NCBI GenBank assembly: GCA_903885795.1
Contig: CAISJV010000027.1
Span: 22,943-86,942 of the forward strand
DNA length: 64,000 nt
Reading direction: 5' to 3'
From: an uncultured delta proteobacterium
GTDB lineage: Bacteria > Desulfobacterota > Syntrophia > Syntrophales > UBA8958
Each line of letters begins with the position of its first letter. The stretch's first letter is position 1. This document shows, one piece after another, positions 20,022-54,403 of this stretch. The notes beneath the pieces are model-generated. The model was not told where the DNA came from. It saw only the letters and a program-made list of their open reading frames with translations, and made no database searches. The position numbers and the translations under genes were made by a program.

Positions 20022-21296
20022 TCAGAAGCCAAATATGCCCCGCAGTCGATCTTTCACTCCTTCTTTGGATTTTACAGAATCGGAACCAGAATCCTCGTCC
20101 ACAGTCTGGGAGCCGCTTGGATCATCATCCTGGGATTTGGGTTGTTGTCTGCTTTTTGTTGAGGAATTACCTCTTCTGCTGCCATCATCAGTTGCCATCA
20201 ATGAAGTCATACCAGTTGATTTGAGACGAACCTTGACCGACCATTTGGGATCCCATGACTGCCTGGGATCCTTGGGCTTGGGCGGGTGAATCAGGTTCAG
20301 CTCTTCGCCATAGGCGATGAACTGCAACATGGCCCCTTGCGAATTCTTGAAGATGGGAGGTATGGTACAGGTTGTGCGGGAGGCATCCAGCACCACCTTT
20401 TCCTTAATAAAACGGTTCACATCACCGGGTGTCAGATAATCCTGCAGCGCAAAACCGATCTCGGGCACCTCACTGGCAGACCAGAATATTGAGTCACCGG
20501 ATAGCTGGTCATGCCCCATGGCGGCGGCAAAATATCCGATTGCTGTGGTAATTGGCTGCCATTCCACCTTCATGGCACCGGACGGAGTCGCTTGGATCGG
20601 TAAAAACTCCACCGATTCCATGAAGTCACGTTTCTTGTCCAGCACAAACGAAATATCCGGCAGATAATTTCCTTTAACCAGATGGCTTCCAACCAGCGAA
20701 CTGTCCTTGGGAACATCAGTCCGTTCTTCACTATTGGGCCATTCTCCATATATCCAGCCCTTATGGGCAGAAGGCGGAATCTGGCGCGTCGGTGATCTGC
20801 CGGCAAAGGCCTTGCCGAAATCGGCGGGGCTCATCTTGGCAGTGTCAATCACTCTGGGCTGGCCTTTGCCCACTGTCTCGCCACAACCCCAGTAAATCAG
20901 CATGCGTACCTTCGGTTTTTCAAGCTTCTCCGGTTTTTCCCCCTTACTCGGCATATATTCATGCTTCTCCACCTGCGGCGTCACAAGAGGCAGCGACGCT
21001 CCCATGTTCAGGCCGGGAGGGATCACGTGAGATGCCTGTGGCTTGTCGGTTACCACCAGAGGTGATTCGGTCTTCAGAAGCAGTTCACGACGCGGACCAA
21101 GGCCCATTTTCCCGCCCATCAGAGCTGCCATGCCGGTCATCTGTCCCGACATCCCGGGGATACTCTGATTGGTTGTGGCAATACTCATCCAGTAATGGGG
21201 ATAGGGCTTGATTTTTTCGGCTGCATGGCCGGGTATCGCTATGAGCAACAACAAACAGCAAGGGGCTAAAAGATCAACTAAGCGGAAACCTCTCAT
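20022..21296 (-). CDS. secreted protein of unknown function
   Basis: 424 aa. Signal peptide MRGFRLVDLLAPCCLLLLIAIPGHAAE. Met/Gly-rich stretch SIPGMSGQMTGMAALMGGKMG. Acidic/Ser-rich C-terminal tail ending RGIFGF. I recognise no family. Confidence 0.6.
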   Translation of the reverse strand: MRGFRLVDLLAPCCLLLLIAIPGHAAEKIKPYPHYWMSIATTNQSIPGMSGQMTGMAALMGGKMGLGPRRELLLKTESPLVVTDKPQASHVIPPGLNMGASLPLVTPQVEKHEYMPSKGEKPEKLEKPKVRMLIYWGCGETVGKGQPRVIDTAKMSPADFGKAFAGRSPTRQIPPSAHKGWIYGEWPNSEERTDVPKDSSLVGSHLVKGNYLPDISFVLDKKRDFMESVEFLPIQATPSGAMKVEWQPITTAIGYFAAAMGHDQLSGDSIFWSASEVPEIGFALQDYLTPGDVNRFIKEKVVLDASRTTCTIPPIFKNSQGAMLQFIAYGEELNLIHPPKPKDPRQSWDPKWSVKVRLKSTGMTSLMATDDGSRRGNSSTKSRQQPKSQDDDPSGSQTVDEDSGSDSVKSKEGVKDRLRGIFGF

Positions 21297-31279: not shown

Positions 31280-32959
31280 ATGGCAGAAGAAGAGAAAAAA
31301 CCAAGGTTGACAAGGGCTGAAAGACTCGAGAAAGATCGGGAAAAGAATATTCAGCACTGGTTGGAGCAGGACGAGCTCCTGTTCAAACACCGGAATGAGG
31401 CTCTCAACATCGGCGGGGACGACCAGGTAGCGCGGCTGGCCAAGCAAAACAAGAAGCCTATGCGTGATCTCATTTCACAGCTTATCGATCCGGGAACGGA
31501 TTTTTTTGAGGTGGGTCTGGATGCGGGCTACGACATCGGGGAAAAGCGCCTCTACGGCGGTGAGATCTATCAGTCAGAAAAACGCGGCAACATCCCCGGC
31601 GGCGGTATGGTTACTGGTATTGGCGTCGTACACGGCAAAGACTGCATGATTTTCGCCAATGAGAACCGCTATGCAGCAGGGACCTATTTCCCCATCACCC
31701 TGAAGAAGCACATGCGGGCTCAGGCTATAGCCGAGGCCTCACGGCTTCCCTGTATTTACATCGCCGATTCCGGCGGCATCAATCTGCCTCTTCAGGTCGG
31801 CTGTTTCGCTGACGAAGGTCATTTTGGCAGCATGTTCTACAACATGTGCCGCATGTCCGCCATGGGTATCAAGCAGTTTACCCTCTCCACGGGTGGCAAC
31901 ACGGCGGGCGGAGCCTATATTGTTTATCTGGCCACTGAATCGATCATGATCGAGAAGATGTCCTTTGCCTTCCTGGCCGGTCCCCCCATGGTCAAGTCGG
32001 CTATCGGCGAGACCGTTTCCCCCGAAGATCTGGGCGGCGCTTACGTCCATACCCAGCACTCCGGTGGTTGCGATCACATTGTCCGGACCCAGGACGAAGG
32101 TATTCAGAAAATTCGTGATATGATGGAGTTCGAGCCTTCCCAGCAGTTGTTCATTGATCGCCGCGAGACGAGAGAGCCGAAATTCGATTTCAAAGAGATG
32201 ATGCGCGCCACCCCCACGGACACGTATCAATACATCAACATCAAAGACACGATCAAGTGTCTTGCCGACGACAGTTATTTCCATGAGTACAAACCGACTT
32301 ACGGCCCCGGCCGCGGCGACTCCGTTGTTTGCGGCAAGATGTGGATGAAGGGCATCCCGGTCGGCGTCGTAGCCTCCAACGCCAGCGGTGTTATATATAT
32401 CGATGCGGCAAGGAAGGCGACCGAGTGGATGATCCGTTGCGGCAATTCCAATCTGCCCGTTCTGTTCCTCCAGGGTTCCCCCGGATACATGGTCGGTAAG
32501 GCGGAAGAGTGGGGCGGCATCGGCAAGTATGGATCAGACATGGTCAGGGCCTGCAGTTGCCTCATGTCTCCCAAAGTGACCTACGTTATCGGCCCCGACC
32601 ACGGTGCCGCCAACTACGGGATGAATGGCCGGGCATTCAAGCCAAGATTTGCTTTCACGAACATGCGGGGCCGTACGACCGTCATGTCCGGTGAAACGGC
32701 GGGTTTCATCGTGGAGACGGTGCGCCGGAAGAATATCGAAGCCAAGGGATTGCCGGTTAATGAAGATGAAATGACCCAGTTCCGTCAGATGATGAGAGAT
32801 CGTTATGACTCCGAAGGGCATCCCTTCTATACGGGATCCCTCCTGTTCCATGACGGTGTCGTCGCCTTCAGTGAAGCCCGTGACAAGATTGCCCGGGCCT
32901 TCGAAATCGCCCTGCGCGTTCCCGTTGCCCATTCCGACTGGGGCGACCTGAAGGTTTAG
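31280..32959 (+). CDS. biotin-dependent acyl-CoA carboxyltransferase subunit (MccB / GcdA / 12S-like)
   Basis: 559 aa with AGGAGGAGG upstream. GGGMVTGIGVVHGKDCMIFANE...TLKKHMRAQAIAEASRLPCIYIADSGGINLP is the Carboxyl_trans signature. Confidence 0.85.
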   Translation: MAEEEKKPRLTRAERLEKDREKNIQHWLEQDELLFKHRNEALNIGGDDQVARLAKQNKKPMRDLISQLIDPGTDFFEVGLDAGYDIGEKRLYGGEIYQSEKRGNIPGGGMVTGIGVVHGKDCMIFANENRYAAGTYFPITLKKHMRAQAIAEASRLPCIYIADSGGINLPLQVGCFADEGHFGSMFYNMCRMSAMGIKQFTLSTGGNTAGGAYIVYLATESIMIEKMSFAFLAGPPMVKSAIGETVSPEDLGGAYVHTQHSGGCDHIVRTQDEGIQKIRDMMEFEPSQQLFIDRRETREPKFDFKEMMRATPTDTYQYINIKDTIKCLADDSYFHEYKPTYGPGRGDSVVCGKMWMKGIPVGVVASNASGVIYIDAARKATEWMIRCGNSNLPVLFLQGSPGYMVGKAEEWGGIGKYGSDMVRACSCLMSPKVTYVIGPDHGAANYGMNGRAFKPRFAFTNMRGRTTVMSGETAGFIVETVRRKNIEAKGLPVNEDEMTQFRQMMRDRYDSEGHPFYTGSLLFHDGVVAFSEARDKIARAFEIALRVPVAHSDWGDLKV

Positions 32960-32988
32960 GATCGTTTCAACGACAGAGGAGGAAAATC

Positions 32989-33789
32989 ATGTCTGATGTT
33001 TTATTGAAGGAAAGGACCGAAGACGGCATCCTGATTCTTACCCTGAATCGTCCGGATGCCATGAACTGTTTCAATTTTGACCTCCTGGCAGTCTTGGCGG
33101 ACACAATCCGGGAAGCCAATTTCGATATGGATCTCCGTTGCATCATCATCACTGGTTGCAAAGCCGGTGATGAGCCCAAGAAGTGGTCATTTTCCACAGG
33201 GGCTGACCTGAAGGAGAGAAGGACACTAACGCAGGATCAGGTTCGCCGTTTCATCTTCACGATCCGCAACACCTTCACGGCGGTAGAGCAGGTGCGAGTA
33301 CCAGTTATCGCCGCCATCAACGGTTTTGCCTTCGGCGGCGGCACGGAACTGGCTTTGGCATGCGATATTCGCATTGCTTCGTCCAATGTCCTCATGGGGC
33401 TGACAGAGACCTCTCTGGCAATCATCCCTGGAGCCGGCGGTACGCAGCGCTTGCCGAGGATCATCGGTGTGGCCAAGGCCAAAGAGCTGATTTACACGGC
33501 CCGCCGGTTCAATGCCCAGACAGCCCTGGATATCGGTCTGGTCAGCAAGGTTGTCGATCCTGATAAACTCATGGAGGCAGCTCTCGAGTTAGCGAGGGAG
33601 ATTGCCAAAAATGGTCCCATCGGCGTGGCCCAGGCAAAGTTTGTTCTCAATTATGGTATGGAGGCAAGCCTTGGCGTTGCCCTGCCTTTGGAATCGAAGG
33701 CTTATGAAGTAACTATCCCGACGAAGGACCGCCTGGAAGCACTGGCTGCCTTTGTAGAAAAGCGGAAACCTGTTTTCAAGGGTGAGTAG
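32989..33789 (+). CDS. enoyl-CoA hydratase/isomerase (crotonase) family, methylglutaconyl-CoA-hydratase-like
   Basis: 266 aa. LNRPDAMNCF, VIAAINGFAFGGGTELALACDIRIAS and GLTETSLAIIPGAGGTQRLPR. Confidence 0.85.
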   Translation: MSDVLLKERTEDGILILTLNRPDAMNCFNFDLLAVLADTIREANFDMDLRCIIITGCKAGDEPKKWSFSTGADLKERRTLTQDQVRRFIFTIRNTFTAVEQVRVPVIAAINGFAFGGGTELALACDIRIASSNVLMGLTETSLAIIPGAGGTQRLPRIIGVAKAKELIYTARRFNAQTALDIGLVSKVVDPDKLMEAALELAREIAKNGPIGVAQAKFVLNYGMEASLGVALPLESKAYEVTIPTKDRLEALAAFVEKRKPVFKGE

Positions 33790-33886
33790 TTGACGGATTA
33801 ACCATTTCCCCTTCTCCATCCTGCCGCCGGAGGAGGGGAATTTAATCTTAACAAAGCACAAAATATAACTAAGGAGGATGTTTTTT

Positions 33887-35077
33887 ATGGCGACAGAGTA
33901 TGATTATTGGAAGATTTTCCCGAGAATGCCAAAGAAGGTAACACTTGGCGACATTACGATCCGCGATGGTTTTCAGCATTGTGAGAAGTTTGTCTCCACG
34001 GCCGCCAAGATTTTTTACGGCCAGGAAATGATTCTTGCTGGTGCAAAGGAGATTGAGATTACCAATCTTGGGAGCGCTGTTACGACGCCCCAGTTCAGTG
34101 ATGCGGAAGAGGTTCTGACGGCCATGCGCAGTGATTCATTCAAGAAGACCTGCGCCCGCGCCGGAATCAACTACGATGAATTAAGCATGACGGCGGTCAG
34201 TATCCGCGAAACCGCTGTGGACCGGGCTATCGAATTAAAGAAGAAAGGGATCGGTCCCGACCGCATCCTCATGATGGTCTCCACGGATCCAGAGCATCAT
34301 TTTGCCAATTCCGGTACGACATTGTCTCAGTATTGGCGGGAGGCGGAGCGTTGCATCAAGAAGGCGCGCGATGCGGGTCTGAAGATGTGCGGCACCGTCA
34401 GCACCATTTGGGGGAGCCCCATCAGCGGCGCCACGGAATTGAAAGACGCCGTGGAATTCACGAAACGCTGGTTCCAGATCGGCGCCCATGATATCGAGCA
34501 TGCCGACCATGACGGTTCTGCCAATGCGGCGGATGTTTACCGTTATTGCTCCATGATCCTAGACGCCATGCCGAATCCGGAAGGCCACCTGCTCCACCTC
34601 CATGAGACGAAGAGAATTGCTTCTTCGTCTATCCTGGCGGCTCTCCAGGCCGGTTTCACGCGGTTTGAGGGGACTCTGGGCGGCCTGGGCGGGCAGCCGG
34701 CCAACTTCCTTGACGATTGCCCCATCCGGGGTACCGGCGAGTACTACTATGATGATCCCCGTTTCGTCGGCCTGATCACCTTTGAAGATCTCCTGGTCCA
34801 GATCGATGAATTGGGCATTGAACATGGTTTTAACGTAGACCGCGTCCTGTGGCTGGGCAAAAAGATGGAGAAGACCTTGAACATGAGACTCCGTTCGGAA
34901 GCCATTTACAATGGCCGGACGCAGAAGGCGGGGCACATGGAATTTGCCCGTCCCGGTCTGAAGAAACTGATCGACAAAGTCGGTGAAAAGGTCGGTCAGC
35001 GGGTTCCGGCGGAATGGTCAGCCAAGGCTATTGTCCCCAAAAAATGGGGTCCTGCGGATCCTATCTGGAAGAAATAG
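33887..35077 (+). CDS. DRE-TIM metallolyase (HMGL-like) family protein, divergent
   Basis: DITIRDGFQH (compare RDGLQN in HMG-CoA lyase), HLHET (HxH metal site), and GLGGQPA where HMG-CoA lyases have GLGGCPYA. About 100 aa longer than typical lyases. Start is at the second ATG, 9 nt after AAGGAGG. Confidence 0.7.
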   Translation: MATEYDYWKIFPRMPKKVTLGDITIRDGFQHCEKFVSTAAKIFYGQEMILAGAKEIEITNLGSAVTTPQFSDAEEVLTAMRSDSFKKTCARAGINYDELSMTAVSIRETAVDRAIELKKKGIGPDRILMMVSTDPEHHFANSGTTLSQYWREAERCIKKARDAGLKMCGTVSTIWGSPISGATELKDAVEFTKRWFQIGAHDIEHADHDGSANAADVYRYCSMILDAMPNPEGHLLHLHETKRIASSSILAALQAGFTRFEGTLGGLGGQPANFLDDCPIRGTGEYYYDDPRFVGLITFEDLLVQIDELGIEHGFNVDRVLWLGKKMEKTLNMRLRSEAIYNGRTQKAGHMEFARPGLKKLIDKVGEKVGQRVPAEWSAKAIVPKKWGPADPIWKK

Positions 35078-35096
35078 TTTTAGGATGAAAGAAACT

Positions 35097-35127
35097 AATC
35101 AGGGGGAGCTTGTTTGCTCCCCCTGAT
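35097..35127 (+). other. strong intra-operon stem-loop between the HMGL-like and biotin-carrier genes
   Basis: atcagggggagc-ttgttt-gctccccctgat, a 12-bp perfect stem. It is followed only by a short cttt. Confidence 0.6.
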
Positions 35128-35201
35128 CTTTAAAATGTTTTGTCATGGCGCGGCGACAAGCCACGCTTAAGTTTTTAAATAATTTCAAGGAGGTTTATCA
35201 A

Positions 35202-35417
35202 ATGGCAATAGAAGTCGTAGCCCCTATGCCCGGAACGATTGCTGAGATTCTGGTTTCGGTTGGTGACGAAGTGCAGGCTGATGAAGAACTTATTATTCTT
35301 GAGGCCATGAAAATGGAAAACCCCATTGTTGCCCCGAAAGGCGGCAAAGTGGCGGAGATCAAAGTAGCCGAGAAGGACAAGGTTGATACCAATCAGGTGC
35401 TCCTCGTCCTCGAATAA
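35202..35417 (+). CDS. biotin carboxyl carrier / biotinyl domain protein (71 aa)
   Basis: AAGGAGG upstream. MAIEVVAPMPGTIAEILV...LIILEAMKMENPIVAPKGG carries the EAMKM biotinylation motif. Start is trimmed from the track ORF at 35145. Confidence 0.85.
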   Translation: MAIEVVAPMPGTIAEILVSVGDEVQADEELIILEAMKMENPIVAPKGGKVAEIKVAEKDKVDTNQVLLVLE

Positions 35418-35443: not shown

Positions 35444-35491
35444 ACGCCGAATCAGTGGACCCTGTGGGGCCTAACTGATTCGGCGTTTTTA
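35444..35491. terminator. intrinsic terminator between convergent operons
   Basis: acgccgaatcagt (35444-35456) pairs with actgattcggcgt (35474-35486), followed by ttttt on the plus strand. It sits 27 nt after the biotin-carrier stop and just beyond the end of the minus-strand CMD gene. Confidence 0.8.
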
Positions 35492-35497
35492 TTCATA

Positions 35498-35890
35498 CTA
35501 TTTGACGGGCCATTCCCCCCGTTCCTTGAGAACCTCACGGTATACTTCGAGTGCCTCGTTGACGGCAGGCATACCGGCATAAGTTGCCACCTGGAAAAAA
35601 ATCTCTGCCAACTTTTTAGGATCGCAACCTACATTGAGCGCCGCATTCACGTGGAGCTTCAGCTCTCCCGTTGCCCTCAGAGCTGCTAACATGGCGCAGG
35701 CGGCCATCTGCCTTTCCGGGAGGGTTAATACTGTTCGCGAATAAAGATTGCCCGTAATGAATTTAGAGAATTCATTGGCCAGATCCTTGTCGAATTCCCG
35801 CCACATAAGATAGGGGGGATCCATCTTGACGCCCTTGCCAAAAAGGGTTTTTGCTGTTTCCTGGGTTCTTTTTACAATTTCATCTGACAT
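35498..35890 (-). CDS. carboxymuconolactone decarboxylase (CMD/AhpD-like) family protein
   Basis: 130 aa. LPERQMAACAMLAALRATGELKLHVNAALNVGCDPKKLAEIFFQVATYAGMPA is the typical CMD-family core. Confidence 0.75.
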   Translation of the reverse strand: MSDEIVKRTQETAKTLFGKGVKMDPPYLMWREFDKDLANEFSKFITGNLYSRTVLTLPERQMAACAMLAALRATGELKLHVNAALNVGCDPKKLAEIFFQVATYAGMPAVNEALEVYREVLKERGEWPVK

Positions 35891-35923
35891 AATAAAAGTA
35901 CTCCTCTCTCATTTATTGTTTGT

Positions 35924-37234
35924 CTATTTATTGATGAAGATGTCCCGGTCCCGATCCTGGAAGTAGAGGTGACGATATTTACCCTTCTGCATACTGTCAA
36001 AAAAGGCTTCCCCCTCCTCTCTGCAGACAGGGCAGCTCTGACCGGGAATGATTACGGCGTGGATTCGCGTCCCCGTGTCGGCAAAGGAATCGATCATGAC
36101 CAGACCGCCGCAATCGTCACAGACCCGGACCGTTTCTTCCTGCTGTTCAGAGATGCCGTCCGTATCATAGTAAATTTGTTTCTTCCGTTTGATATATTTA
36201 TTCGTTCCCACAAGCGATTTTTTCATGTCCCGGCGCTTTTTCCAGAGCATCATGACTTCCGAGGAGGTCCGTTCTATGTACTGGGTGATCTGCTCGGATT
36301 GTCTGAGCGCCTCTGCATTATAATCCGGCTCCCGGACGGCGCTGTAGTCCAGACCTGCCATGGCCAGAATGATGCCTACATTTACGTAGGGCAGGGCCTT
36401 TTCGATGGAATAGCCCCCTTCGAGGACGGCGATGTCCGGTGCCAGGCGCTCATTCAGTCGGGCATAACCCTGGGCGCTGAAACGCATATTGGTGATCGGA
36501 TCCGTATAATGATTGTCCTGCCCGGCGGAGTTGATGACGATATCCGGCTTGAACTCGGCAAGGATCGGCATGATAACGTTTTCGAGGACATAGAGAAATC
36601 CCTCGTCCGAGGTCCGGGGCGGCAGTGGCACATTGATCGTTGTCCCCAGGGCGTTAGGCCCTCCGAATTCGTCGGTGGACCCCGTGCCCGGGTACAGGGT
36701 CCGGCCGTCCTGGTGGATGGAGATACATAGGGTGTTGGGATCGTGCCAGTAAATCTCCTGGGTGCCGTCGCCGTGATGGCAATCCGTATCGACAATGGCG
36801 ATCCGCTTGGGGCCGTAATGTTTCCGTATATATTCCACCATGATGGCTTCGATGTTGACGTTACAAAAGCCACGGGCGCCGTGGACGACCTTCATGGCAT
36901 GATGTCCCGGCGGTCTGACTAGGGCAAAGGCGTTGTCCACTTCCTTGGTCATGACCTTTTGGGCTGCTGTGATGGCGCCCCCCGCCGAGATGAGATGGGA
37001 TTCCGTAATGACGCTGCTTGCCTGGGGTACGCAGATGTGGATACGGTTAATGTCCTCCACTGTTGCCAGCCCGGGTTTGTATTCGATGATGTTCTCAAAA
37101 TCGAGAAGCCCCTCTTCAAAAACCTGATCCTGGGTATAGAGAAGCCTCTCCTCCCGTTCCGGATGGGTCGGAGAGATGGCCCAATCGAAGGCGGGGAAAA
37201 AGATCAGACCCGTTTTGCGCTCCTTTTTACTCAT
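35924..37234 (-). CDS. histone deacetylase / acetylpolyamine amidohydrolase family protein with a C-terminal zinc ribbon
   Basis: 436 aa. VRPPGHHA, DTDCHHGDGTQ and EGGY motifs. C-terminal CDDCGG...CPVCREEG. The ATG overlaps the upstream stop (ATGA). Confidence 0.85.
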   Translation of the reverse strand: MSKKERKTGLIFFPAFDWAISPTHPEREERLLYTQDQVFEEGLLDFENIIEYKPGLATVEDINRIHICVPQASSVITESHLISAGGAITAAQKVMTKEVDNAFALVRPPGHHAMKVVHGARGFCNVNIEAIMVEYIRKHYGPKRIAIVDTDCHHGDGTQEIYWHDPNTLCISIHQDGRTLYPGTGSTDEFGGPNALGTTINVPLPPRTSDEGFLYVLENVIMPILAEFKPDIVINSAGQDNHYTDPITNMRFSAQGYARLNERLAPDIAVLEGGYSIEKALPYVNVGIILAMAGLDYSAVREPDYNAEALRQSEQITQYIERTSSEVMMLWKKRRDMKKSLVGTNKYIKRKKQIYYDTDGISEQQEETVRVCDDCGGLVMIDSFADTGTRIHAVIIPGQSCPVCREEGEAFFDSMQKGKYRHLYFQDRDRDIFINK

Positions 37235-38904
37235 AACATCTTACCCCTCGTGAACCCTGAAATCAGCCCCGGTTTGATTTGAACCTTAACCCGAATATTT
37301 TTTCCCGCCGTATATGAATCCCGGATCATATTGAATTCCTGATTCTCAATGACTTCGATTTCGAGGTCTTCATCTTTTGCACCCATGGCCAGGGCCTTTT
37401 CACGAAGCCTTTCCCTGCCGACGGCAATGGCCTCTTCAGATGTGAATCGTGAGGGGATCGGTATTTGCAGCCCTTCCTCGCCAATGGTCAACAAACGTCT
37501 TTCCGTATCGGCAAGTATTGTCAATTCCGCCGTGGTTCTGGCCAGGGCCGCTCCTATGGCGTTGGCCACTTCCGAATGCTCAGGGATGAAGGGTGTACAG
37601 GCCAGATAGCCCCCCAGGGGACCTGCCATAGCCGCTGCCGGCCCGCCCACCACATATAGGGCCTTGGGGGAGATCTTTCTCCCTTCCAGCATTTCGTGAA
37701 TCGTATATACGGGCTGATTATTTATTTCTTCGGTGAATGAAAGCACCGCAGCAACAATCTTCCTGCAGGCTTCCTCAAAAATCTGCTGCGCCGTTTCCTT
37801 AACGGACCTGCCCAATAGACGGGCAATGGGTTCCAGAGCGATTACGGCCTTGTCCCGCTCGCCGATAGTTGTCATATTCAAAACGATCATAGCGTCGGTC
37901 GGAGTGGGGAAAGGTCCTCCCAAGGCGGCCGCCGGACCTTCCCGCTGGGGACCGATCATAAGTTTCCCATTTTCACAACGGACAATGCTGTCTCCGCCGA
38001 GGCCTATAGATCTTGTCCTCAGTCCCCGGATCAAGGTTTTATGGCCTTCAATAGTAACACCCAGATTCTCTAGGAGCGGAACTCCATCGGCAAAAATGGC
38101 GATATCCGTGGTTGTGCCGCCGATGTCCAGGGCGATAGCGTCCTCGTTGCATTTGACCATACTGAGAACACCCATGATGCTTGCCGCCGGTCCGGAAAGG
38201 ATAGTCTGGGCCGGGTAGTCGGCCGACTTGGCAACTTCGAAGGTTCCCCCGTCGGCTTTCAATATATAGATGGGGACGTTGATTCCCTGCTGCTTGACGA
38301 ATTGAAGAACGTCTTGGACGAAGCGTTGGTAGAGGTCCCAGATGGCGCTGTTAAGATAGGTAGTTGCAATCCGCCGCCGAAAATTGAGATGCCCGGACAT
38401 GCGATGACCAAGGGATGCATGGTAGAAATGGTTGCTCAGAATCTCGGCAATCTTCAGCTCCTGTTCGGGATTGCGGGTGCAAAACTTACCTACAATGCCA
38501 ATATGATCAATGCCTTCCTGTCTCAGTTTGGCGCCGACGTCCTTAATCTCTTCCGTATTGATATCGGCGGCGATAATACCGCGGTGATTCACATAGCCTT
38601 CAATGAAGTGGGCATTATGAGGAACAGGGAGCAGGGAGGGTGGCAAACCGGGACCGCTGGCAATAATCATCCCCACTCTCTTAATCTTGTTCTGAACAAT
38701 AGCGTTGGTAGAAAGGGTGGTACTGAGAACCACCCGCTGGAGTTTGGCCGGATCTTCTGCTGCAAGGATTGTGGTTGTAACCTGGAGCAGTGAATTCAAT
38801 AAATGGTGAGCATCCGTGGGAACCTTGGCCTTCTTCCTGATTTTGAAATGATCGATAAGAACCGCATCCGTATGCGTCCCGCCAACATCAATCCCTAAGA
38901 TCAT
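37231..38904 (-). CDS. hydantoinase/oxoprolinase-family (ASKHA-fold) protein
   Basis: MILGIDVGGTHTDAVLI N-terminus and a second phosphate loop, ALDIGGTTTDIA. Start is at the ATG at 38904, preceded by GGAGGA. The track ORF adds 38 unsupported codons. Confidence 0.8.
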   Translation of the reverse strand: MILGIDVGGTHTDAVLIDHFKIRKKAKVPTDAHHLLNSLLQVTTTILAAEDPAKLQRVVLSTTLSTNAIVQNKIKRVGMIIASGPGLPPSLLPVPHNAHFIEGYVNHRGIIAADINTEEIKDVGAKLRQEGIDHIGIVGKFCTRNPEQELKIAEILSNHFYHASLGHRMSGHLNFRRRIATTYLNSAIWDLYQRFVQDVLQFVKQQGINVPIYILKADGGTFEVAKSADYPAQTILSGPAASIMGVLSMVKCNEDAIALDIGGTTTDIAIFADGVPLLENLGVTIEGHKTLIRGLRTRSIGLGGDSIVRCENGKLMIGPQREGPAAALGGPFPTPTDAMIVLNMTTIGERDKAVIALEPIARLLGRSVKETAQQIFEEACRKIVAAVLSFTEEINNQPVYTIHEMLEGRKISPKALYVVGGPAAAMAGPLGGYLACTPFIPEHSEVANAIGAALARTTAELTILADTERRLLTIGEEGLQIPIPSRFTSEEAIAVGRERLREKALAMGAKDEDLEIEVIENQEFNMIRDSYTAGKNIRVKVQIKPGLISGFTRGKML

Positions 38905-39058
38905 TGTTCCTCCAGCCAAGAAAATCAATATCTGCATTGCCCTATATAATGATAAATTTATCTTGACAAGGTAAAAAAAAAGCGTATGGTCTCCTTCACT
39001 AAAGGTGATTAGTATCATCCCAAGGTAATGAAATTATTGGAAAGGAGGTGACGCTTTA

Positions 39059-39319
39059 ATGAAGAAGGTATTTGCCATTATTCTTTCGCTGCTTTTCGTT
39101 GTGACGTTTTCGCTTGCAGTCGTTGGTTGCAAGAAGGCCGAAGAGCAGAAACCGGCTGAGCCGGCTAAGACCGAGGCTCCTGCCCCCGCTCCCGCGGCTC
39201 CTGGTGCTCCTGGTGCTCCCGCAGCTCCTGGTGCGGCTCCGGCGGCTCCTGGTGCGGCTCCCGCGGCTCCTGGTGCAGCTCCGGCAGCTCCGGCGCCCGC
39301 AGCTCCAGCGGCAAAGTAA
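39059..39319 (+). CDS. small lipoprotein with an Ala/Pro-rich tandem-repeat tail
   Basis: Signal plus lipobox MKKVFAIILSLLFVVTFSLAVVGC. Then KPAEPAKTEAPAPAPAAPGAPGAPAAPGAAPAAPGAAPAAPGAAPAAPAPAAPAAK. RBS GGAGG upstream and a terminator downstream. Confidence 0.6.
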   Translation: MKKVFAIILSLLFVVTFSLAVVGCKKAEEQKPAEPAKTEAPAPAPAAPGAPGAPAAPGAAPAAPGAAPAAPGAAPAAPAPAAPAAK

Positions 39320-39345
39320 TATAGAACCAAAAGTTCATCTTGAAG

Positions 39346-39380
39346 ACCGGGCATTTGATATTCGAATGCCCGGTTTTTTA
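39346..39380 (+). terminator. intrinsic terminator
   Basis: accgggcat-ttgatattcga-atgcccggt followed by tttttt. Confidence 0.8.
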
Positions 39381-39911: not shown

Positions 39912-40313
39912 ATGTACGTCGAAATCAGTTTGTTATGTTTGAGTTTGGCCGTTCTTCTCATTGTAGCTTTTACAGTTCCTCTTCTCTGGCAGGTCAGGAA
40001 GGTGGTTCAGGGGCTCTCCTTGACTCAGGAGATGCTCCAAAAAAGACTGCCGGCGATTCTTCAAAACCTGGAAGAATCCTTGGTAACGGTGAAAAGAACG
40101 GCTCATATCGTCAACGAGCAAGTAGAAGTTGCAGCCGTGGCCATGAAAAGGTTACAGGCCGTCTTGGGCGTCTTGATGGAACTGGAGAATGTCGCGCGAC
40201 TGGGGATAAAATTGCCCTTCTTCAGATTCCTGCGGAATACCAACGCGGTTGTGAGAGGCGTCAAGGTCTTCCTGAATGTCTACACCTCCAGACCTCATCA
40301 ATTGGGGCAATAG
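39912..40313 (+). CDS. DUF948-like membrane-anchored coiled-coil protein
   Basis: MYVEISLLCLSLAVLLIVAFTVPLLWQVRKVVQGLSLTQEML... has one N-terminal TM helix followed by helical sequence. It is a typical partner of YtxH genes. Confidence 0.6.
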   Translation: MYVEISLLCLSLAVLLIVAFTVPLLWQVRKVVQGLSLTQEMLQKRLPAILQNLEESLVTVKRTAHIVNEQVEVAAVAMKRLQAVLGVLMELENVARLGIKLPFFRFLRNTNAVVRGVKVFLNVYTSRPHQLGQ

Positions 40314-40327
40314 GGTCCGCGGCAGCG

Positions 40328-40792
40328 ATGGCAAAGATGACCTTTGGCAATAAGGGGGGGCGTGTCCGGGCAGCAGTCCAAAGACCGGCCGGTGTTGTAG
40401 CGCGGCCTGTCGAAGATATCGTCAGAGAACTCAAGAAGGCGAATCAGAAGTCGCCAGGCGAAGATTATCGGGAGCGTTCCCTGGCCATTCATGGCCTTAT
40501 CTGTGCCCGGTGCGCCCGGGAATTCTCGGGAGTGCAAAGGCAGCTCCTGACGGTTCATCATAAAGACGGTAACCACCACAATAATCCTTCTGACGGCAGT
40601 AATTGGGAAAATCTCTGTGTATACTGTCATGACGATACCCACAGCCGCGGTCTTCTGGGTGACTATCTGGAAGGGGCGCCCGGCTCACAAGAGATCGGCG
40701 TTGCTTATCGGGATGTGGGGCACACTGATATGTCTCCGGGACGATCGGCTTTGGGAGACAAACTGCAACAGGCACTGCAAAGAAAGAAATAG
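40328..40792 (+). CDS. yajD: HNH nuclease YajD
   Basis: YRERSLAIHGLICARCAREF...LTVHHKDGNHHNNPSDGSNWENLCVYCHDDTH aligns closely by eye with E. coli YajD. Only the 3' part of track ORF 39935..40792 is taken. Confidence 0.75.
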   Translation: MAKMTFGNKGGRVRAAVQRPAGVVARPVEDIVRELKKANQKSPGEDYRERSLAIHGLICARCAREFSGVQRQLLTVHHKDGNHHNNPSDGSNWENLCVYCHDDTHSRGLLGDYLEGAPGSQEIGVAYRDVGHTDMSPGRSALGDKLQQALQRKK

Positions 40793-41033: not shown

Positions 41034-42026
41034 GTGGATGTTATTGAACAAGGAGTAGGAAGGATCTTTACGGATCCGGATGCGGATAAGGCGAGGGAGT
41101 TTTTCCGCCATAAAAGCCGCGCCCTCGTGAGCAAACTCACAACAGTCAAAGAAGCAGTGCAGAAGTATGTGACCGATGGTGATTATGTCTCCATCGGCGG
41201 TTTTGGGGTTAACAGAATCCCGGCAGCCGTACTTCATGAAATTGTCAGGCAGGGCAAGAAGAATCTTGGCTTGGCTGGTCATACTGCAACACATGACTTC
41301 CAGATTCTTTCCGCTGGAAAATGTTTCAACAAGGTTGATGCGGCCTATATCATTGGCCTGGAAGCAAGAGGATTGTCCCCCAACGCCCGGCAGTATATGG
41401 AAAGCGGTGAGGTTGAAGTTTCCGAGTGGACCAATTATACCCTTGCCGTGCGCTATAAGGCTGCCTGTGCGGGGGTTTCTTTCCACCCCATCCGCAATAT
41501 GATGGGTACGGATACCTTCAAGTACAGTGGCGCCAAGAAAGTAAAGTGCCCCTTCACAGGGGTCAATTACGCTCTGGTTCCCGCCCTGTATTCGGATGTG
41601 GGACTGATTCATGTCCATGAGGCGGACATTTACGGCAACTGCCGGACCAAAGGCATTCTCATGTCGGATTATGACATTGCCCGTTCCTCGAAAAAACTTA
41701 TTGTGACCTGCGAGCGTCTGATCACGAACGACGAAATCCGCAGAGATCCCACCTCGACCTTTATCCCCTACTGGTGCGTCGATGCCCTGATTGAAGTACC
41801 CTACGGCAGCTATCCCGGCAACATGTATGCCGAGTATTTCTCGGATGAGGAACATCTCCGGGAATGGCTGAAGGTGGAGAAGGATCCGGACGAGTTCAAG
41901 GCGTTCCTCGACAAGAACATTTACGGTGTAAAGGATCACTTTGAGTACATCGAAAGAAACGGCGGCATTGGTAAGATGAACAGACTCAGACAAAAAGAGT
42001 GGCTGTTTGTCGGCGCCAGGGCATAG
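41034..42026 (+). CDS. class I CoA-transferase, subunit A (glutaconate CoA-transferase GctA-like)
   Basis: 330 aa. GTG start 7 nt after AAGGAGG. DGDYVSIGGFGVNRIPAAVLHEIVRQG..., typical of the A subunit. Confidence 0.8.
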   Translation: MDVIEQGVGRIFTDPDADKAREFFRHKSRALVSKLTTVKEAVQKYVTDGDYVSIGGFGVNRIPAAVLHEIVRQGKKNLGLAGHTATHDFQILSAGKCFNKVDAAYIIGLEARGLSPNARQYMESGEVEVSEWTNYTLAVRYKAACAGVSFHPIRNMMGTDTFKYSGAKKVKCPFTGVNYALVPALYSDVGLIHVHEADIYGNCRTKGILMSDYDIARSSKKLIVTCERLITNDEIRRDPTSTFIPYWCVDALIEVPYGSYPGNMYAEYFSDEEHLREWLKVEKDPDEFKAFLDKNIYGVKDHFEYIERNGGIGKMNRLRQKEWLFVGARA

Positions 42027-42049
42027 AGAGAGGAGGATAAATACGAATT

Positions 42050-42820
42050 ATGGCTAACTATAACACAATGGAGTTGATGATTTGTACGGCTGCGAGGGAG
42101 CTTGAAGATGGCGCCAGTGTCGGCGTGGGTACCGGCGCCCCCTGTGCCGCCGCCATGCTTGCACAAATGACGAAGTCTCCCAACCTGGTGATTCTTTTCG
42201 AGGCGGGTGGGGCGGCCCCGTTGATTCCGGAGATGCCGATTTCCGTCGGCGACTCACGGACGACCTGGAAAGCTCTTATGGCAAGCAGCATGGCGGAAAT
42301 TATGGAAACCGCTTGCCGCGGGCAGCTCGACTACACCTTCCTCGGCGGGGCGCAGATCGATATGTATGGAAACCTGAATTCCACACGGATCGGTAATGAT
42401 CACCAGAAACCCAAGGTCCGTTTCCCGGGGAGCGGCGGGGCCAACGACTTTGCGTCCTTCTGCTGGCGCATGATGGTCATGACCCCTCAGGACCCCAAGC
42501 GTTTTACCGAGAAGTGTTCTTACATCACTTCGCCAGGGTGGCTGGAAGGCGGCGACTCCCGCGCGAAGTCCGGTCTGCCCCTGGGCGCAGGCCCCTACAA
42601 GATCATTACCAATATGGCTGTTATGGACTTTGAACCGACATCCAAGCGGATGCGGCTCATTGCCGTCAATCCCGGTTATTCCGAGAAGGACGTACAGGAC
42701 AATTGCGGTTTCGAGCTTCTCAAGGCCCCGAAGATAGCCGAGAATCCGGGCCCGAGCGAGAACGAGCTGTCCATTCTCCGCGACAAGATAGATCCCTACC
42801 GCTATGTCATCGGGCGTTAA
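42050..42820 (+). CDS. class I CoA-transferase, subunit B (GctB-like)
   Basis: 256 aa. VGVGTGAPCAAAMLAQ...LVILFEAGG contains a Glu at the position of the catalytic glutamate loop. FLGGAQIDMYGNLNST also present. Confidence 0.8.
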   Translation: MANYNTMELMICTAARELEDGASVGVGTGAPCAAAMLAQMTKSPNLVILFEAGGAAPLIPEMPISVGDSRTTWKALMASSMAEIMETACRGQLDYTFLGGAQIDMYGNLNSTRIGNDHQKPKVRFPGSGGANDFASFCWRMMVMTPQDPKRFTEKCSYITSPGWLEGGDSRAKSGLPLGAGPYKIITNMAVMDFEPTSKRMRLIAVNPGYSEKDVQDNCGFELLKAPKIAENPGPSENELSILRDKIDPYRYVIGR

Positions 42821-53587: not shown

Positions 53588-54403
53588 ATGATGAAAAATT
53601 CCGACCCCCATCTCTGTCAGCCCGACGAGTGTAAATCCTGCGGGGCCTGTTGTGGGCTCTATAACTATGCCGACTCTTCCCGTGAATCGCTTATTTTGCG
53701 GCTGAGGCGGAGAACGAAACTGTTTCGCCACGCCGATAAATCCCCGGAGGGGCTTCAGGCTTTCTCCTCCATGATTCAGGCTGCGGAAGACATGGCCAAG
53801 CGCTACGAGGTTATCTACTGCTGTGAGTACCTGGGATTTCTCGATGCGGGAGAGAAGCGCGTCGGCTGTCTTCTCCACCCCCTTCAGAATGGCGGCGTGG
53901 ATCACCGGGAGGTCTCTTTTTACGGCCGTGAGCTCTGTGATGGCCATTTCTGCCCAAGTTATCACTATATCTCCCGGGAAGAAAAACAGTCGCTCCTGAA
54001 TACTATCGATGACTGGTACCTCTTCGGACTGGTCATTACGGATATCGATCTGGTCAAATCATATTTCCAGCTGATCAGCGACGGGGTCTATGAGACGCCC
54101 TCGCCGGAACGGTTCAAAGAAGTCCTGCTCCGCAAAAAGGTTTTGTCCTTCTTTGATCTCAAGCTATCATGGCCCTTCCGTTCCGCCGATGTACATCGCC
54201 TGGGGAAATATTATTTTGACGGTTCCCAGTACATGATCAACCATATCGATTACGAGGACCTTGATTCGGAAAGATCTCGTTTCGACAGGATATTCCTGAG
54301 CCTGACCTCCGATTTTCGCAGTCGGGAAGACCTCCGGCAGGCGGAAGACCTGATTCAGGGTCATCTGGATGCCTTTATCCATGCTTATCAGGATAACCAT
54401 TGA
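53588..54403 (+). CDS. YkgJ-like CxxCxxCC (putative Zn/Fe-chelating) domain protein
   Basis: 271 aa. N-terminal CKSCGACCGLYNY, then further Cys/His motifs (YCCEYLGF, GCLLHP, CDGHFCPSYH). Confidence 0.55.
   Translation: MMKNSDPHLCQPDECKSCGACCGLYNYADSSRESLILRLRRRTKLFRHADKSPEGLQAFSSMIQAAEDMAKRYEVIYCCEYLGFLDAGEKRVGCLLHPLQNGGVDHREVSFYGRELCDGHFCPSYHYISREEKQSLLNTIDDWYLFGLVITDIDLVKSYFQLISDGVYETPSPERFKEVLLRKKVLSFFDLKLSWPFRSADVHRLGKYYFDGSQYMINHIDYEDLDSERSRFDRIFLSLTSDFRSREDLRQAEDLIQGHLDAFIHAYQDNH

Follow-up and report, generated by a model that had tools for sequence, protein, structure and literature searches.

How can an operon carry out a biotin-dependent carboxylation if it encodes no biotin carboxylase? 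The question is raised by four co-directional genes at positions 31280-35417 (+ strand) of a 64-kb stretch of DNA from an uncultured delta proteobacterium (contig CAISJV010000027.1, assembly GCA_903885795.1; the whole analysed stretch is called the window below). They encode a carboxyltransferase assigned to the MccB clade, a hydratase of the AUH/LiuC type, a long protein related to 3-hydroxy-3-methylglutaryl-CoA (HMG-CoA) lyases and a biotin carrier of 71 amino acids (aa). On balance, we think it probable that the operon is an anaerobic Liu-type module for leucine/isovalerate catabolism, built on an ordinary ATP-dependent methylcrotonyl-CoA carboxylase whose subunits are genetically unlinked, with the carboxylase subunit supplied in trans. 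There is good support for assigning the operon to leucine/isovalerate catabolism.

In the proposed mechanism, the transferase would carboxylate the gamma-methyl group of 3-methylcrotonyl-CoA to give 3-methylglutaconyl-CoA, with carboxybiotin on the 71-aa carrier as the carboxyl donor. The hydratase would convert 3-methylglutaconyl-CoA to HMG-CoA, and the long lyase relative would cleave HMG-CoA to acetyl-CoA and acetoacetate. A nearby pair of proteins resembling glutaconate CoA-transferase (Gct) would probably activate acetoacetate or the starting acid. The carrier itself would be charged by a biotin carboxylase (BC) encoded elsewhere, either a stand-alone enzyme of the AccC/PycA type or a shared alpha subunit through its BC domain.

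The subfamily placement of the single proteins is coherent with this mechanism. The Pfam Carboxyl_trans match covers residues 97-546 of the transferase, and in a sequence search of the PDB the protein matched MccB, AccD1 and MCCC2 over the full length with E-values of about 1e-107 to 1e-110 (Pseudomonas aeruginosa MccB, 3u9r, 2e-109; human MCCC2, 2e-107; Mycobacterium tuberculosis AccD1, 6e-107). The other clades scored far lower in the same search (geranyl-CoA carboxylase beta, 4e-77; 12S/PccB, ~1e-36; GcdA, 6e-23), the MmdA model gave 187 bits with a cutoff of 999, and the PccB-like transferase of a related locus (L074) is 25% identical. The initial annotation had described the protein as "MccB/GcdA/12S-like" and had proposed to place it among the MccB, PccB, GcdA and 12S clades. 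The E-values, used here in place of a formal tree, put it with MccB, while the 12S and GcdA parts of that description did not stand. By sequence, the transferase is assigned to the 3-methylcrotonyl-CoA carboxylase beta-subunit clade (MccB/LiuB/AccD1), and carboxylation at the gamma carbon of 3-methylcrotonyl-CoA is its predicted reaction.

The best PDB matches of the hydratase were 3kqf, Myxococcus xanthus LiuC (5jbw, 2e-61) and human AUH (1hzd, 3e-61), with generic crotonases at ~1e-44, and the protein is classed by this comparison in the 3-methylglutaconyl-CoA hydratase subgroup (AUH/LiuC). The carrier is a Biotin_lipoyl barrel-sandwich domain with an EAMKM motif and is predicted to be biotinylated. 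Its closest solved biotinyl domains (Pyrococcus horikoshii biotin carboxyl carrier protein, BCCP; transcarboxylase 1.3S; PycB; Bacillus subtilis BLAP) do not discriminate between enzyme classes. It is a bare domain, lacking the AccB N-domain, residues 1-50 of 1.3S and the Ala-Pro linker of GcdC/MmdC. Overall, the set of Liu-type parts that had been recognised in the operon (MccB-like transferase, methylglutaconyl-CoA hydratase and HMG-CoA lyase relative) was borne out, each part falling in the Liu-specific subgroup.

Then, we compared the operon with related loci. The long lyase-like barrel has 4839 database homologues, of which the top 120 are at least 78% identical, and a scan of one genome per species found a close relative in at least 549 genomes. 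We kept 80 loci with 76-99% identity to the long barrel of the window, and 81 distinct loci were compared. Open reading frames (ORFs) of the loci were called with conservation-weighted selection and clustered, and the recurrent clusters were annotated; MccB-like and PccB-like transferases, lumped by single linkage, were separated by the GKLTARER motif and by identity. The 80 loci are labelled Syntrophus, Smithella, Syntrophales, Syntrophaceae, Syntrophobacteraceae and Desulfoferrobacter, with a few unclassified or differently labelled metagenome-assembled genomes (MAGs), and the window is at 99% to a Syntrophus sp. MAG.

An MccB-like transferase adjoins the long barrel in 64 of the 81 loci, and the hydratase is likewise present in 64. 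The order transferase-hydratase-long lyase recurs in ~60/81 loci and is therefore not a chance arrangement. The 71-aa carrier was found in 37 loci, an acyl-CoA dehydrogenase in 33 (in Smithella together with electron-transfer flavoprotein, ETF, alpha/beta), a Gct-like CoA-transferase pair in 24 and a canonical HMG-CoA lyase of ~305 aa (GGLGGCP...GN) beside the long form in 23. Further recurrent neighbours encode a short-chain fatty acid (AtoE-type) transporter, a Liv-type ABC transporter with an AMP-ligase, sigma-54 regulators, a CoA-transferase of the acetyl-CoA hydrolase/transferase family, an acetoacetyl-CoA-synthetase-like ligase and ETF alpha/beta. Judging from their families, these neighbours would take care of uptake, activation and dehydrogenation as well as of the activation of acetoacetate, and with them the logic of isovalerate/leucine catabolism would be complete.

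The link to isovalerate comes from the genus Desulfococcus. In Desulfococcus multivorans, the proteins EchA2, Mcc, HmgL and AcsA6 were formed exclusively in cells grown with 3-methylbutanoate (Doerries et al. 2016, PMC5109826). The cluster includes echA2 (Dmul_28480, 260 aa), mcc (Dmul_28470, 530 aa, a single transferase subunit), hmgL (Dmul_28460, 390 aa), a regulator gene (Dmul_28450, 212 aa) and acsA6 (Dmul_28430, 650 aa) (PMC5109826). Locus L098 of Desulfococcus sp. has the order acyl-CoA dehydrogenase, enoyl-CoA hydratase (260 aa), carboxyltransferase (530), HMGL-like protein (390), regulator (212), hydrolase and acetoacetyl-CoA-synthetase-like ligase (650); the lengths and order are those of Dmul_28480/70/60/50/30. 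The two clusters were equated by genus, gene order and identical gene lengths, not by sequence identity with the type strain. The 390-aa barrel of L098 is 72% identical to the window protein and carries all the motifs of the family, and its transferase is 50% identical. No carboxylase, carrier or canonical lyase occurs within 8 kb of L098, and the long barrel is the only lyase candidate of the cluster. These identities make the window operon orthologous to a cluster that matches, in order and lengths, the published isovalerate-induced one, and for this reason the operon is best read as a leucine/isovalerate catabolic module.

The cluster of D. multivorans and the window share the three core proteins, including the long lyase of 390 aa in the former, and the absence of a biotin carboxylase from the cluster. 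They differ in that D. multivorans has the order hydratase-transferase-lyase, no carrier, and a linked acyl-CoA dehydrogenase and acetoacetyl-CoA-synthetase-like ligase. The cluster proteins were annotated as ordinary Mcc and HmgL, with no enzyme assays reported and no comment on the missing alpha subunit or the atypical lyase (PMC5109826). Members of the variant described here have thus been seen in a proteogenomic study and never analysed as such. Beyond that study, we found nothing in the literature on the methylcrotonyl-CoA carboxylase or HMG-CoA lyase of Syntrophus, on 3-methylglutaconyl-CoA decarboxylase or on syntrophic isovalerate degradation.

The four genes are laid out as the initial annotation had described, all on the + strand and supported by Pfam (Table 1); this includes the sizes of the Carboxyl_trans protein and of the stand-alone biotinyl domain. 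For the third gene, the DRE-TIM/HMGL-like family held and the proposed length of 397 aa did not: the ORF can be extended to 33878-35077 (399 aa), and a start at the second Met, as seen in the orthologues, leaves 396 aa. The carrier ORF is also extendable (35145-35417, 90 aa), and its true start is very probably the internal one listed in the table, because an AAGGAGG ribosome-binding site lies 7 nt upstream of it and the orthologues have 71 aa. An AGGAGG ribosome-binding site precedes the ATG of the transferase gene. As the intergenic gaps are short (29, 97 and 124 nt) and a strong terminator hairpin follows the carrier gene, the four genes can be considered one transcription unit. This terminator closes the operon and is common to it and the convergent CMD-family gene. 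A further hairpin, with only a weak U-tract 3' of its stem, lies between the lyase-like and carrier genes; it may be an attenuator, or an mRNA-processing or stabilising element, by which carrier expression could be set separately. No Rfam family or riboswitch was found in the window by the Rfam scan.

Table 1. Positions of the operon genes, of the associated RNA structures and of the nearby CoA-transferase pair in the window
Feature	Position	Strand	Description
Carboxyltransferase	31280-32959	+	559 aa; Pfam Carboxyl_trans, E = 1e-92
Crotonase (hydratase)	32989-33789	+	266 aa; Pfam ECH_1, E = 4e-60
Long DRE-TIM/HMGL-like protein (TIM396)	33887-35077	+	396 aa; Pfam HMGL-like, E = 3e-19
Hairpin between lyase-like and carrier genes	35097-35128	+	12-13-bp G+C-rich stem; -25.7 kcal/mol, z = -4.4
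Biotin carrier	35202-35417	+	71 aa; Pfam Biotin_lipoyl, E = 2.5e-19; EAMKM
Intrinsic terminator	35446-35491	.	Hairpin, -34.2 kcal/mol, z = -7.8, then UUUUUAUU
Glutaconate-CoA-transferase-like A/B pair	41034-42820	+	330 and 256 aa; ~5.6 kb past the operon

Concerning the long DRE-TIM protein, both an HMG-CoA lyase and a carboxyltransferase like OadA or the transcarboxylase 5S subunit had been considered. The PDB sequence search returned HMG-CoA lyases only (phmmer, E from 1e-20 to 3e-11). The AlphaFold model (pLDDT 92.9) also had HMG-CoA lyases as best Foldseek matches (2e-27 to 1e-20; 6nds at 2e-27, 2cw6 and 1ydo at ~1e-24), with TM scores of 0.90-0.94 relative to the target. The corresponding scores for 5S and OadA were 0.47-0.48 (Foldseek E = 1e-13 to 5e-12), no better than those of isopropylmalate or homocitrate synthases. 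Sequence and predicted fold agree in placing the protein on the side of the HMG-CoA lyases.

The barrel retains the strand-1 Arg-Asp, the segment S..E.H...N and, as metal ligands, the HxH motif. The Cys-to-Gln change with an insertion, already noticed in the initial annotation, is real in the alignment with canonical lyases: the loop of the window protein is GGLGGQPANFLDDCPIRGTGEYYYDDPRFVGL, that of canonical lyases GGLGGCP(F/Y)xxGxxGN. GGLGGQPA replaces GGLGGCP, with Gln for the loop Cys (human Cys266), and ~17 extra residues follow (NFLDDCPIRGTGEYYYDDPRF). Furthermore, VGL(I/V)TxED (VGLITFED in the window) replaces GN(I/V)ATED, with Leu for the Asn metal ligand (human Asn275), and ADHDG is found where canonical lyases have (G/A/C)DTxG. 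The protein also has a ~13-residue insertion after strand 3 and a ~60-residue C-terminal tail. Among 84 long copies the motifs ITIRDGFQH, IEHADHDGS (81/84), HL[CL]HLHETKR and GGLGGQPA (78/84) are near-invariant, and because of this the active site is taken to be under strong selection and not decaying. Loci with and without a canonical lyase do not differ in the active-site motifs of the long form.

Automatic annotation deals poorly with this family. The long barrel reaches 106 bits with the NCBIfam HMG-CoA lyase model PRK05692 (cutoff 246), and its orthologues are named "hypothetical protein" or "pyruvate carboxyltransferase" by NCBI (PGAP) and HMG-CoA lyase by JGI. IEHADHDGS has an Ala at the position of the carbamylated Lys in the KDMAG motif of 5S, pyruvate carboxylase and OadA; the genuine PycB-like protein of locus L065 has this Lys (ILCIKDMAG). 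No PYC_OADA domain was found in the long barrel by the Pfam scan. The simplest reading of these features is that the long barrel represents an autonomous acyl-CoA lyase subfamily, and HMG-CoA cleavage is the predicted activity of the Gln variant.

A canonical lyase of ~300-310 aa (GGLGGCP(F/Y)...GN(I/V)ATE) lies 50-600 nt downstream of the long form in 22 loci (L026, L029, L030, L033, L035, L036, L039, L040, L042, L045, L046, L053, L054, L056, L061-L063, L066, L070, L072, L076, L079), and in L021, the 23rd locus, it lies beside the long form on the opposite strand. This co-occurrence suggests that the two lyases are not redundant. Distant relatives of the GGQP type (30-49% identity) have no biotin enzymes around them; they are either solitary or accompanied by genes for a thiolase and an AMP-ligase. 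The thiolase/HMGL-like/AMP-ligase trio around one of them (P0147, L087 6663-10761) resembles ORFs 00007-00015 of D. biacutus, most products of which were more abundant on acetone (PMC4103992). In six Syntrophobacteraceae loci (L047, L067, L068, L071, L075, L077; positions ~7100-8300), a third HMGL-like paralogue of ~340 aa is encoded upstream of the transferase, with a sigma-54 activator gene ahead of it. Its site looks degenerate (REGLQ, HFYEN for HxH, GGAGVHS).

We then looked for the missing carboxylase. Using Escherichia coli AccC as tblastn query, validated against PDB 1bnc (1017 bits), no biotin carboxylase was found in the window, nor within 10 kb of any MccB-like transferase in the related loci (64/64). 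A membrane subunit of the OAD_beta type was absent from the window, where Pfam was run on all ORFs of 300 aa or longer and on the majority of those between 100 and 300 aa, and from the annotated recurrent gene families of the 81 loci. The absence of both components from the window, as initially reported, is thus confirmed. The partner alpha subunit of the transferase (BC + BT + BCCP) is encoded with it neither in the window nor within 10 kb in the 64 loci. Indeed, 35 of these 64 loci lack a carrier gene too, so in those genomes the biotin component comes from elsewhere.

Related Desulfobacterota have a fused BC-BCCP alpha subunit whose gene lies at another place in the genome, and this makes an ordinary carboxylase acting in trans an available explanation. 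This alpha-subunit family is widespread in Syntrophobacteraceae and Desulfobacterales, and a Syntrophus MAG encodes a stand-alone carboxylase of the PycA type. In D. multivorans, PccA (BC-BCCP, 669 aa) adjoins a PccB-like transferase, and it was paired with the unlinked PccB3 in PMC5109826. No alpha subunit of this BC-BCCP type (~670 aa) was detected in Syntrophus, for which no whole genome was inspected, and no large operon-carrying contig was among the 120 matches listed for the alpha-subunit query. A biotin carboxylase encoded elsewhere would be the most likely source of carboxybiotin.

A split carboxylase of this kind has a precedent. The yng operon of B. subtilis (yngJIHGFE/yngHB), which serves leucine degradation, encodes YngE, YngF, YngG, YngH and the 73-aa YngHB. 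Like the window, it has a separate transferase (YngE), a ~73-aa carrier (YngHB/BLAP, presumably the protein of PDB 1z6h), a hydratase (YngF) and an HMG-CoA lyase (YngG, which we take to be 1ydo). It provides a precedent for a split methylcrotonyl-CoA carboxylase with a ~70-aa carrier. Unlike the window, the yng operon encodes its own biotin carboxylase (YngH), and YngG is a canonical lyase of ~300 aa with the GGCP loop, to which the window barrel aligns at E = 2e-18 with Gln in that place. The Pseudomonas Liu and human MCC/AUH/HMGCL systems share the same three chemical steps and give the closest matches for the transferase, the hydratase and the lyase fold. They have a fused BC-BT-BCCP alpha subunit, whose gene adjoins the beta gene in Pseudomonas, whereas the window has only the 71-aa carrier; and the window lyase exceeds theirs by 100 aa, has two insertions and a tail at the C-terminus, and is altered in residues of the catalytic and metal sites. 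The module is a variant of the Liu/Yng theme in which the carboxylase is unlinked, the carrier minimal and the lyase long and of the Gln type.

Several observations weigh against an ordinary lyase and carboxylase. Since 23 loci have a fully canonical lyase right beside the long form, the latter may do something other than cleave HMG-CoA; it has Gln for the loop Cys, Leu for the Asn ligand and DHDG for DTxG, and it stays far below the NCBIfam lyase cutoff. The consistent unlinking across 64 loci is unusual for a dedicated catabolic carboxylase, and the orphan partner in Syntrophus is assumed. By our own bookkeeping, the energetics also disfavour ATP use in an obligate syntroph. In the pathway of Stieb & Schink, cited in PMC5109826, 3 acetyl-CoA would be formed, 2 of them would be spent on CoA transfers to isovalerate and acetoacetate, and 1 ATP would be left by substrate-level phosphorylation. 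This ATP would be consumed by an ATP-dependent carboxylation together with the reversed electron transport that the acyl-CoA dehydrogenase requires. With nothing left, the cell could afford the pathway only for co-metabolism or if an external electron acceptor were available. If ATP-dependent carboxylation is unaffordable in this sense, the same pathway could run without ATP, as in one of the two alternatives of the initial annotation: transferase and carrier would dock on a Na+-translocating beta subunit (GcdB/OadB/MmdB type) encoded elsewhere and run in reverse, the Na+ gradient paying for carboxybiotin, an energy-saving variant for syntrophs. We consider this doubtful, a minor possibility. 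Na+-decarboxylases are reversible, Syntrophus is thought to run glutaconyl-CoA decarboxylase backwards, and GcdABCD, which combines a transferase with a biotin carrier, acts on a glutaconyl-type CoA ester without ATP; the absence of biotin carboxylase from 64/64 loci and the free-standing carrier would fit as well. However, neither the OAD_beta-type subunit nor a delta-type anchor was found, the beta and delta membrane subunits of GcdABCD having no counterpart in the window or the related loci, and the transferase falls in the MccB clade and not with the decarboxylase alpha subunits represented by GcdA and MmdA. Decarboxylase gamma subunits carry an Ala/Pro linker and an anchoring part, both missing from the 71-aa carrier, and the module also occurs in sulfate reducers, which can afford ATP. 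For Syntrophus and Smithella in particular, a carrier charged without ATP, by a reversed shared Na+ beta subunit or by an unrecognised donor, with a second role of the long Gln-type barrel tied to it, seems to us doubtful to a similar degree.

The co-occurrence of long and canonical lyases could also mean that the same enzyme logic serves another 3-alkyl-branched or unbranched enoyl-CoA, the long lyase cleaving the matching 3-hydroxy-3-alkylglutaryl-CoA and the canonical lyase HMG-CoA. Candidates would be terpenoid-type substrates (geranyl-CoA-like), dicarboxylates of the 3-methylglutaconate or HMG type entering via the Gct-like CoA-transferase, and crotonyl-/glutaconyl-CoA. Paired paralogous clusters (L009/L051, L013/L083, L020/L080), one of each pair with a MaoC-type hydratase replacing or beside the crotonase, the nearby glutaconate-type CoA-transferase, which acts on dicarboxylates, and the absence of an acyl-CoA dehydrogenase from the 64-kb window point in this direction. 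We regard it as unlikely, given that MccB is a much nearer relative of the transferase than geranyl-CoA carboxylase beta is, isovalerate induces the orthologous cluster and the long-lyase motifs do not change with the presence of a canonical lyase. An operation of the module in the decarboxylating, biosynthetic direction appears very unlikely. HMG-CoA or 3-methylglutaconyl-CoA would lead to 3-methylcrotonyl-CoA and isovaleryl-CoA, a primer for iso-branched lipids, as a biotin-dependent analogue of the myxobacterial AibAB route, and the carboxybiotin would decay or pass to another enzyme. Decarboxylation would need no biotin carboxylase; M. xanthus uses its LiuC-like hydratase in both directions, and LiuC is the second-best PDB match of the window hydratase, with Gct-family A/B proteins near the pathway genes in both cases. 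FabH-like and short-chain dehydrogenase/reductase genes follow the cluster in Syntrophobacteraceae loci, and the window operon lies amid the housekeeping genes queA, tgt and secDF. Yet growth on isovalerate induces the orthologous proteins of Desulfococcus, the genes for uptake, activation and acetoacetate activation around the clusters are typical of catabolism, the lyase would be pointless in that direction, no HMG-CoA synthase is encoded nearby and the CoA-transferase pair keeps the catalytic Glu, unlike AibB; the direction is most probably catabolic. The other alternative of the initial annotation, a three-component transcarboxylase, we find hardly credible. The DRE-TIM protein would be a second, 5S-like carboxyltransferase that loads the carrier from a beta-keto acid, for instance oxaloacetate or acetoacetate, the carboxyl group then passing via the MccB-like transferase to 3-methylcrotonyl-CoA. 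The window shares with the Propionibacterium enzyme (12S + 5S + 1.3S) the same three Pfam families and the lack of a biotin carboxylase; transferase and long barrel form an invariant core that persists even without the hydratase (L041, L049, L050, L057), the separate lyase of 23 loci makes the long form look redundant as a lyase, and long-form genes lie beside two other kinds of biotin enzyme (L025, L037 and L074; L065). This reading was not borne out: the transferase is MccB-like (1e-110) and not 12S-like (2e-36), the barrel matches only HMG-CoA lyases by sequence and resembles them by fold, it has Ala for the carbamylated Lys and no PYC_OADA domain, its orthologue also occurs alone, its distant GGQP-type relatives keep company with thiolase or AMP-ligase genes and not with biotin enzymes, the carrier lacks the 1.3S-type N-terminal tether and the Desulfococcus cluster has no carrier at all. 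On the sequence, the fold, the missing Lys and the solitary orthologues, we rejected a 5S-like role of the DRE-TIM protein.

Returning to the Liu-type module with a carboxylase in trans, its surroundings vary among the related loci. The pair of transferase and long barrel is kept in the four loci without crotonase, and also where a MaoC hydratase is in its place. Several MAGs carry two long-barrel paralogues (L009/L051, L013/L083, L020/L080, L022/L082, L030/L069, L005/L065). Usually, one paralogue keeps company with the Liv transporter or the carrier, and its counterpart with a different biotin enzyme or a hydratase of the MaoC type; this division hints that the paralogous clusters have two substrate specificities. 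In L025 (2723-6303), L074 (2709-6358) and L037 (9927-12790), the long barrel lies beside a PccB-like transferase and a fused BC-BCCP alpha subunit, in a purC/purE neighbourhood. In L065 (1110-4591), it lies beside a pycA-like carboxylase and a pycB/oadA-like protein (IKDMAG, C-terminal biotinyl domain). The solitary long-barrel orthologue is found behind a sigma-54 two-component regulator.

In the window, the operon is preceded by the divergent housekeeping genes queA, tgt, yajC, secD and secF and followed by convergent genes for a CMD-family, an HDAC-like and a Hydantoinase_A protein; neither an acyl-CoA dehydrogenase nor a canonical HMG-CoA lyase is encoded in the 64 kb. The best PDB matches of the Gct-like pair are Acidaminococcus fermentans GctA/GctB (E = 5e-45 and 5e-46), with AibAB of M. 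xanthus at 1e-23, and the catalytic Glu of GctB (FEAGG), which AibB lacks, is retained. A reading of the pair as an AibAB-type decarboxylase was rejected on these grounds. In two types of related loci (B and D) a Gct-like pair immediately adjoins the transferase or long-lyase genes, and for this reason the window pair probably belongs to the pathway, for acetoacetate or acid activation, despite the 5.6-kb gap.

The three convergent genes (35498-39018, - strand) encode a CMD-family protein of 130 aa, an HDAC-like protein of 436 aa and a lone Hydantoinase_A protein of 595 aa, with no B subunit. The trio is syntenic in ~20 related loci and lies apart from the cluster in L020. The hydantoinase had prompted the idea of a carboxyl shuttle, in which acetoacetate gives CO2 to biotin and acetone leaves. 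We dropped it because the hydantoinase has no B/gamma partners, is on the other strand and is apart in L020, and the shuttle would bring no gain over direct cleavage. Further on, an ORF with an HNH-endonuclease domain (39935-40792) is 285 aa long, while the syntenic genes of related loci encode 119-154 aa; an N-terminal extension or an over-called start may account for this. Three ORFs of 424, 271 and 106 aa (20022-21296, -; 53588-54403, +; 39034-39354, -) match no Pfam family at E <= 1e-5 or 1e-3. Positions 699-1430 encode a 243-aa protein with four hemopexin repeats (Pfam E = 3e-43), a domain uncommon in bacteria.

Anaerobic protein degradation has isovalerate, formed from leucine, as one of its major intermediates, and to our knowledge little is known of the organisms and enzymes by which it is consumed in methanogenic systems. 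Hundreds of Syntrophales, Smithella and Syntrophobacteraceae genomes carry the module, as the only candidate route and consistently without a linked biotin carboxylase. The Gln-for-Cys lyase subfamily merits biochemical study: its conservation is strong, isovalerate induces it in Desulfococcus, and a canonical lyase often accompanies it. If the carboxylase acts in trans, the finding would mainly be a lesson for annotation, on split or shared carboxylase subunits and on a new long HMG-CoA lyase subfamily that PGAP cannot name. If the carboxylation is instead ATP-independent, it would explain how syntrophs afford this step on a pathway that yields ~1 ATP, and charging of the carrier without ATP would be the energy-saving step, missing so far, by which isovalerate oxidation becomes thermodynamically feasible for syntrophs.

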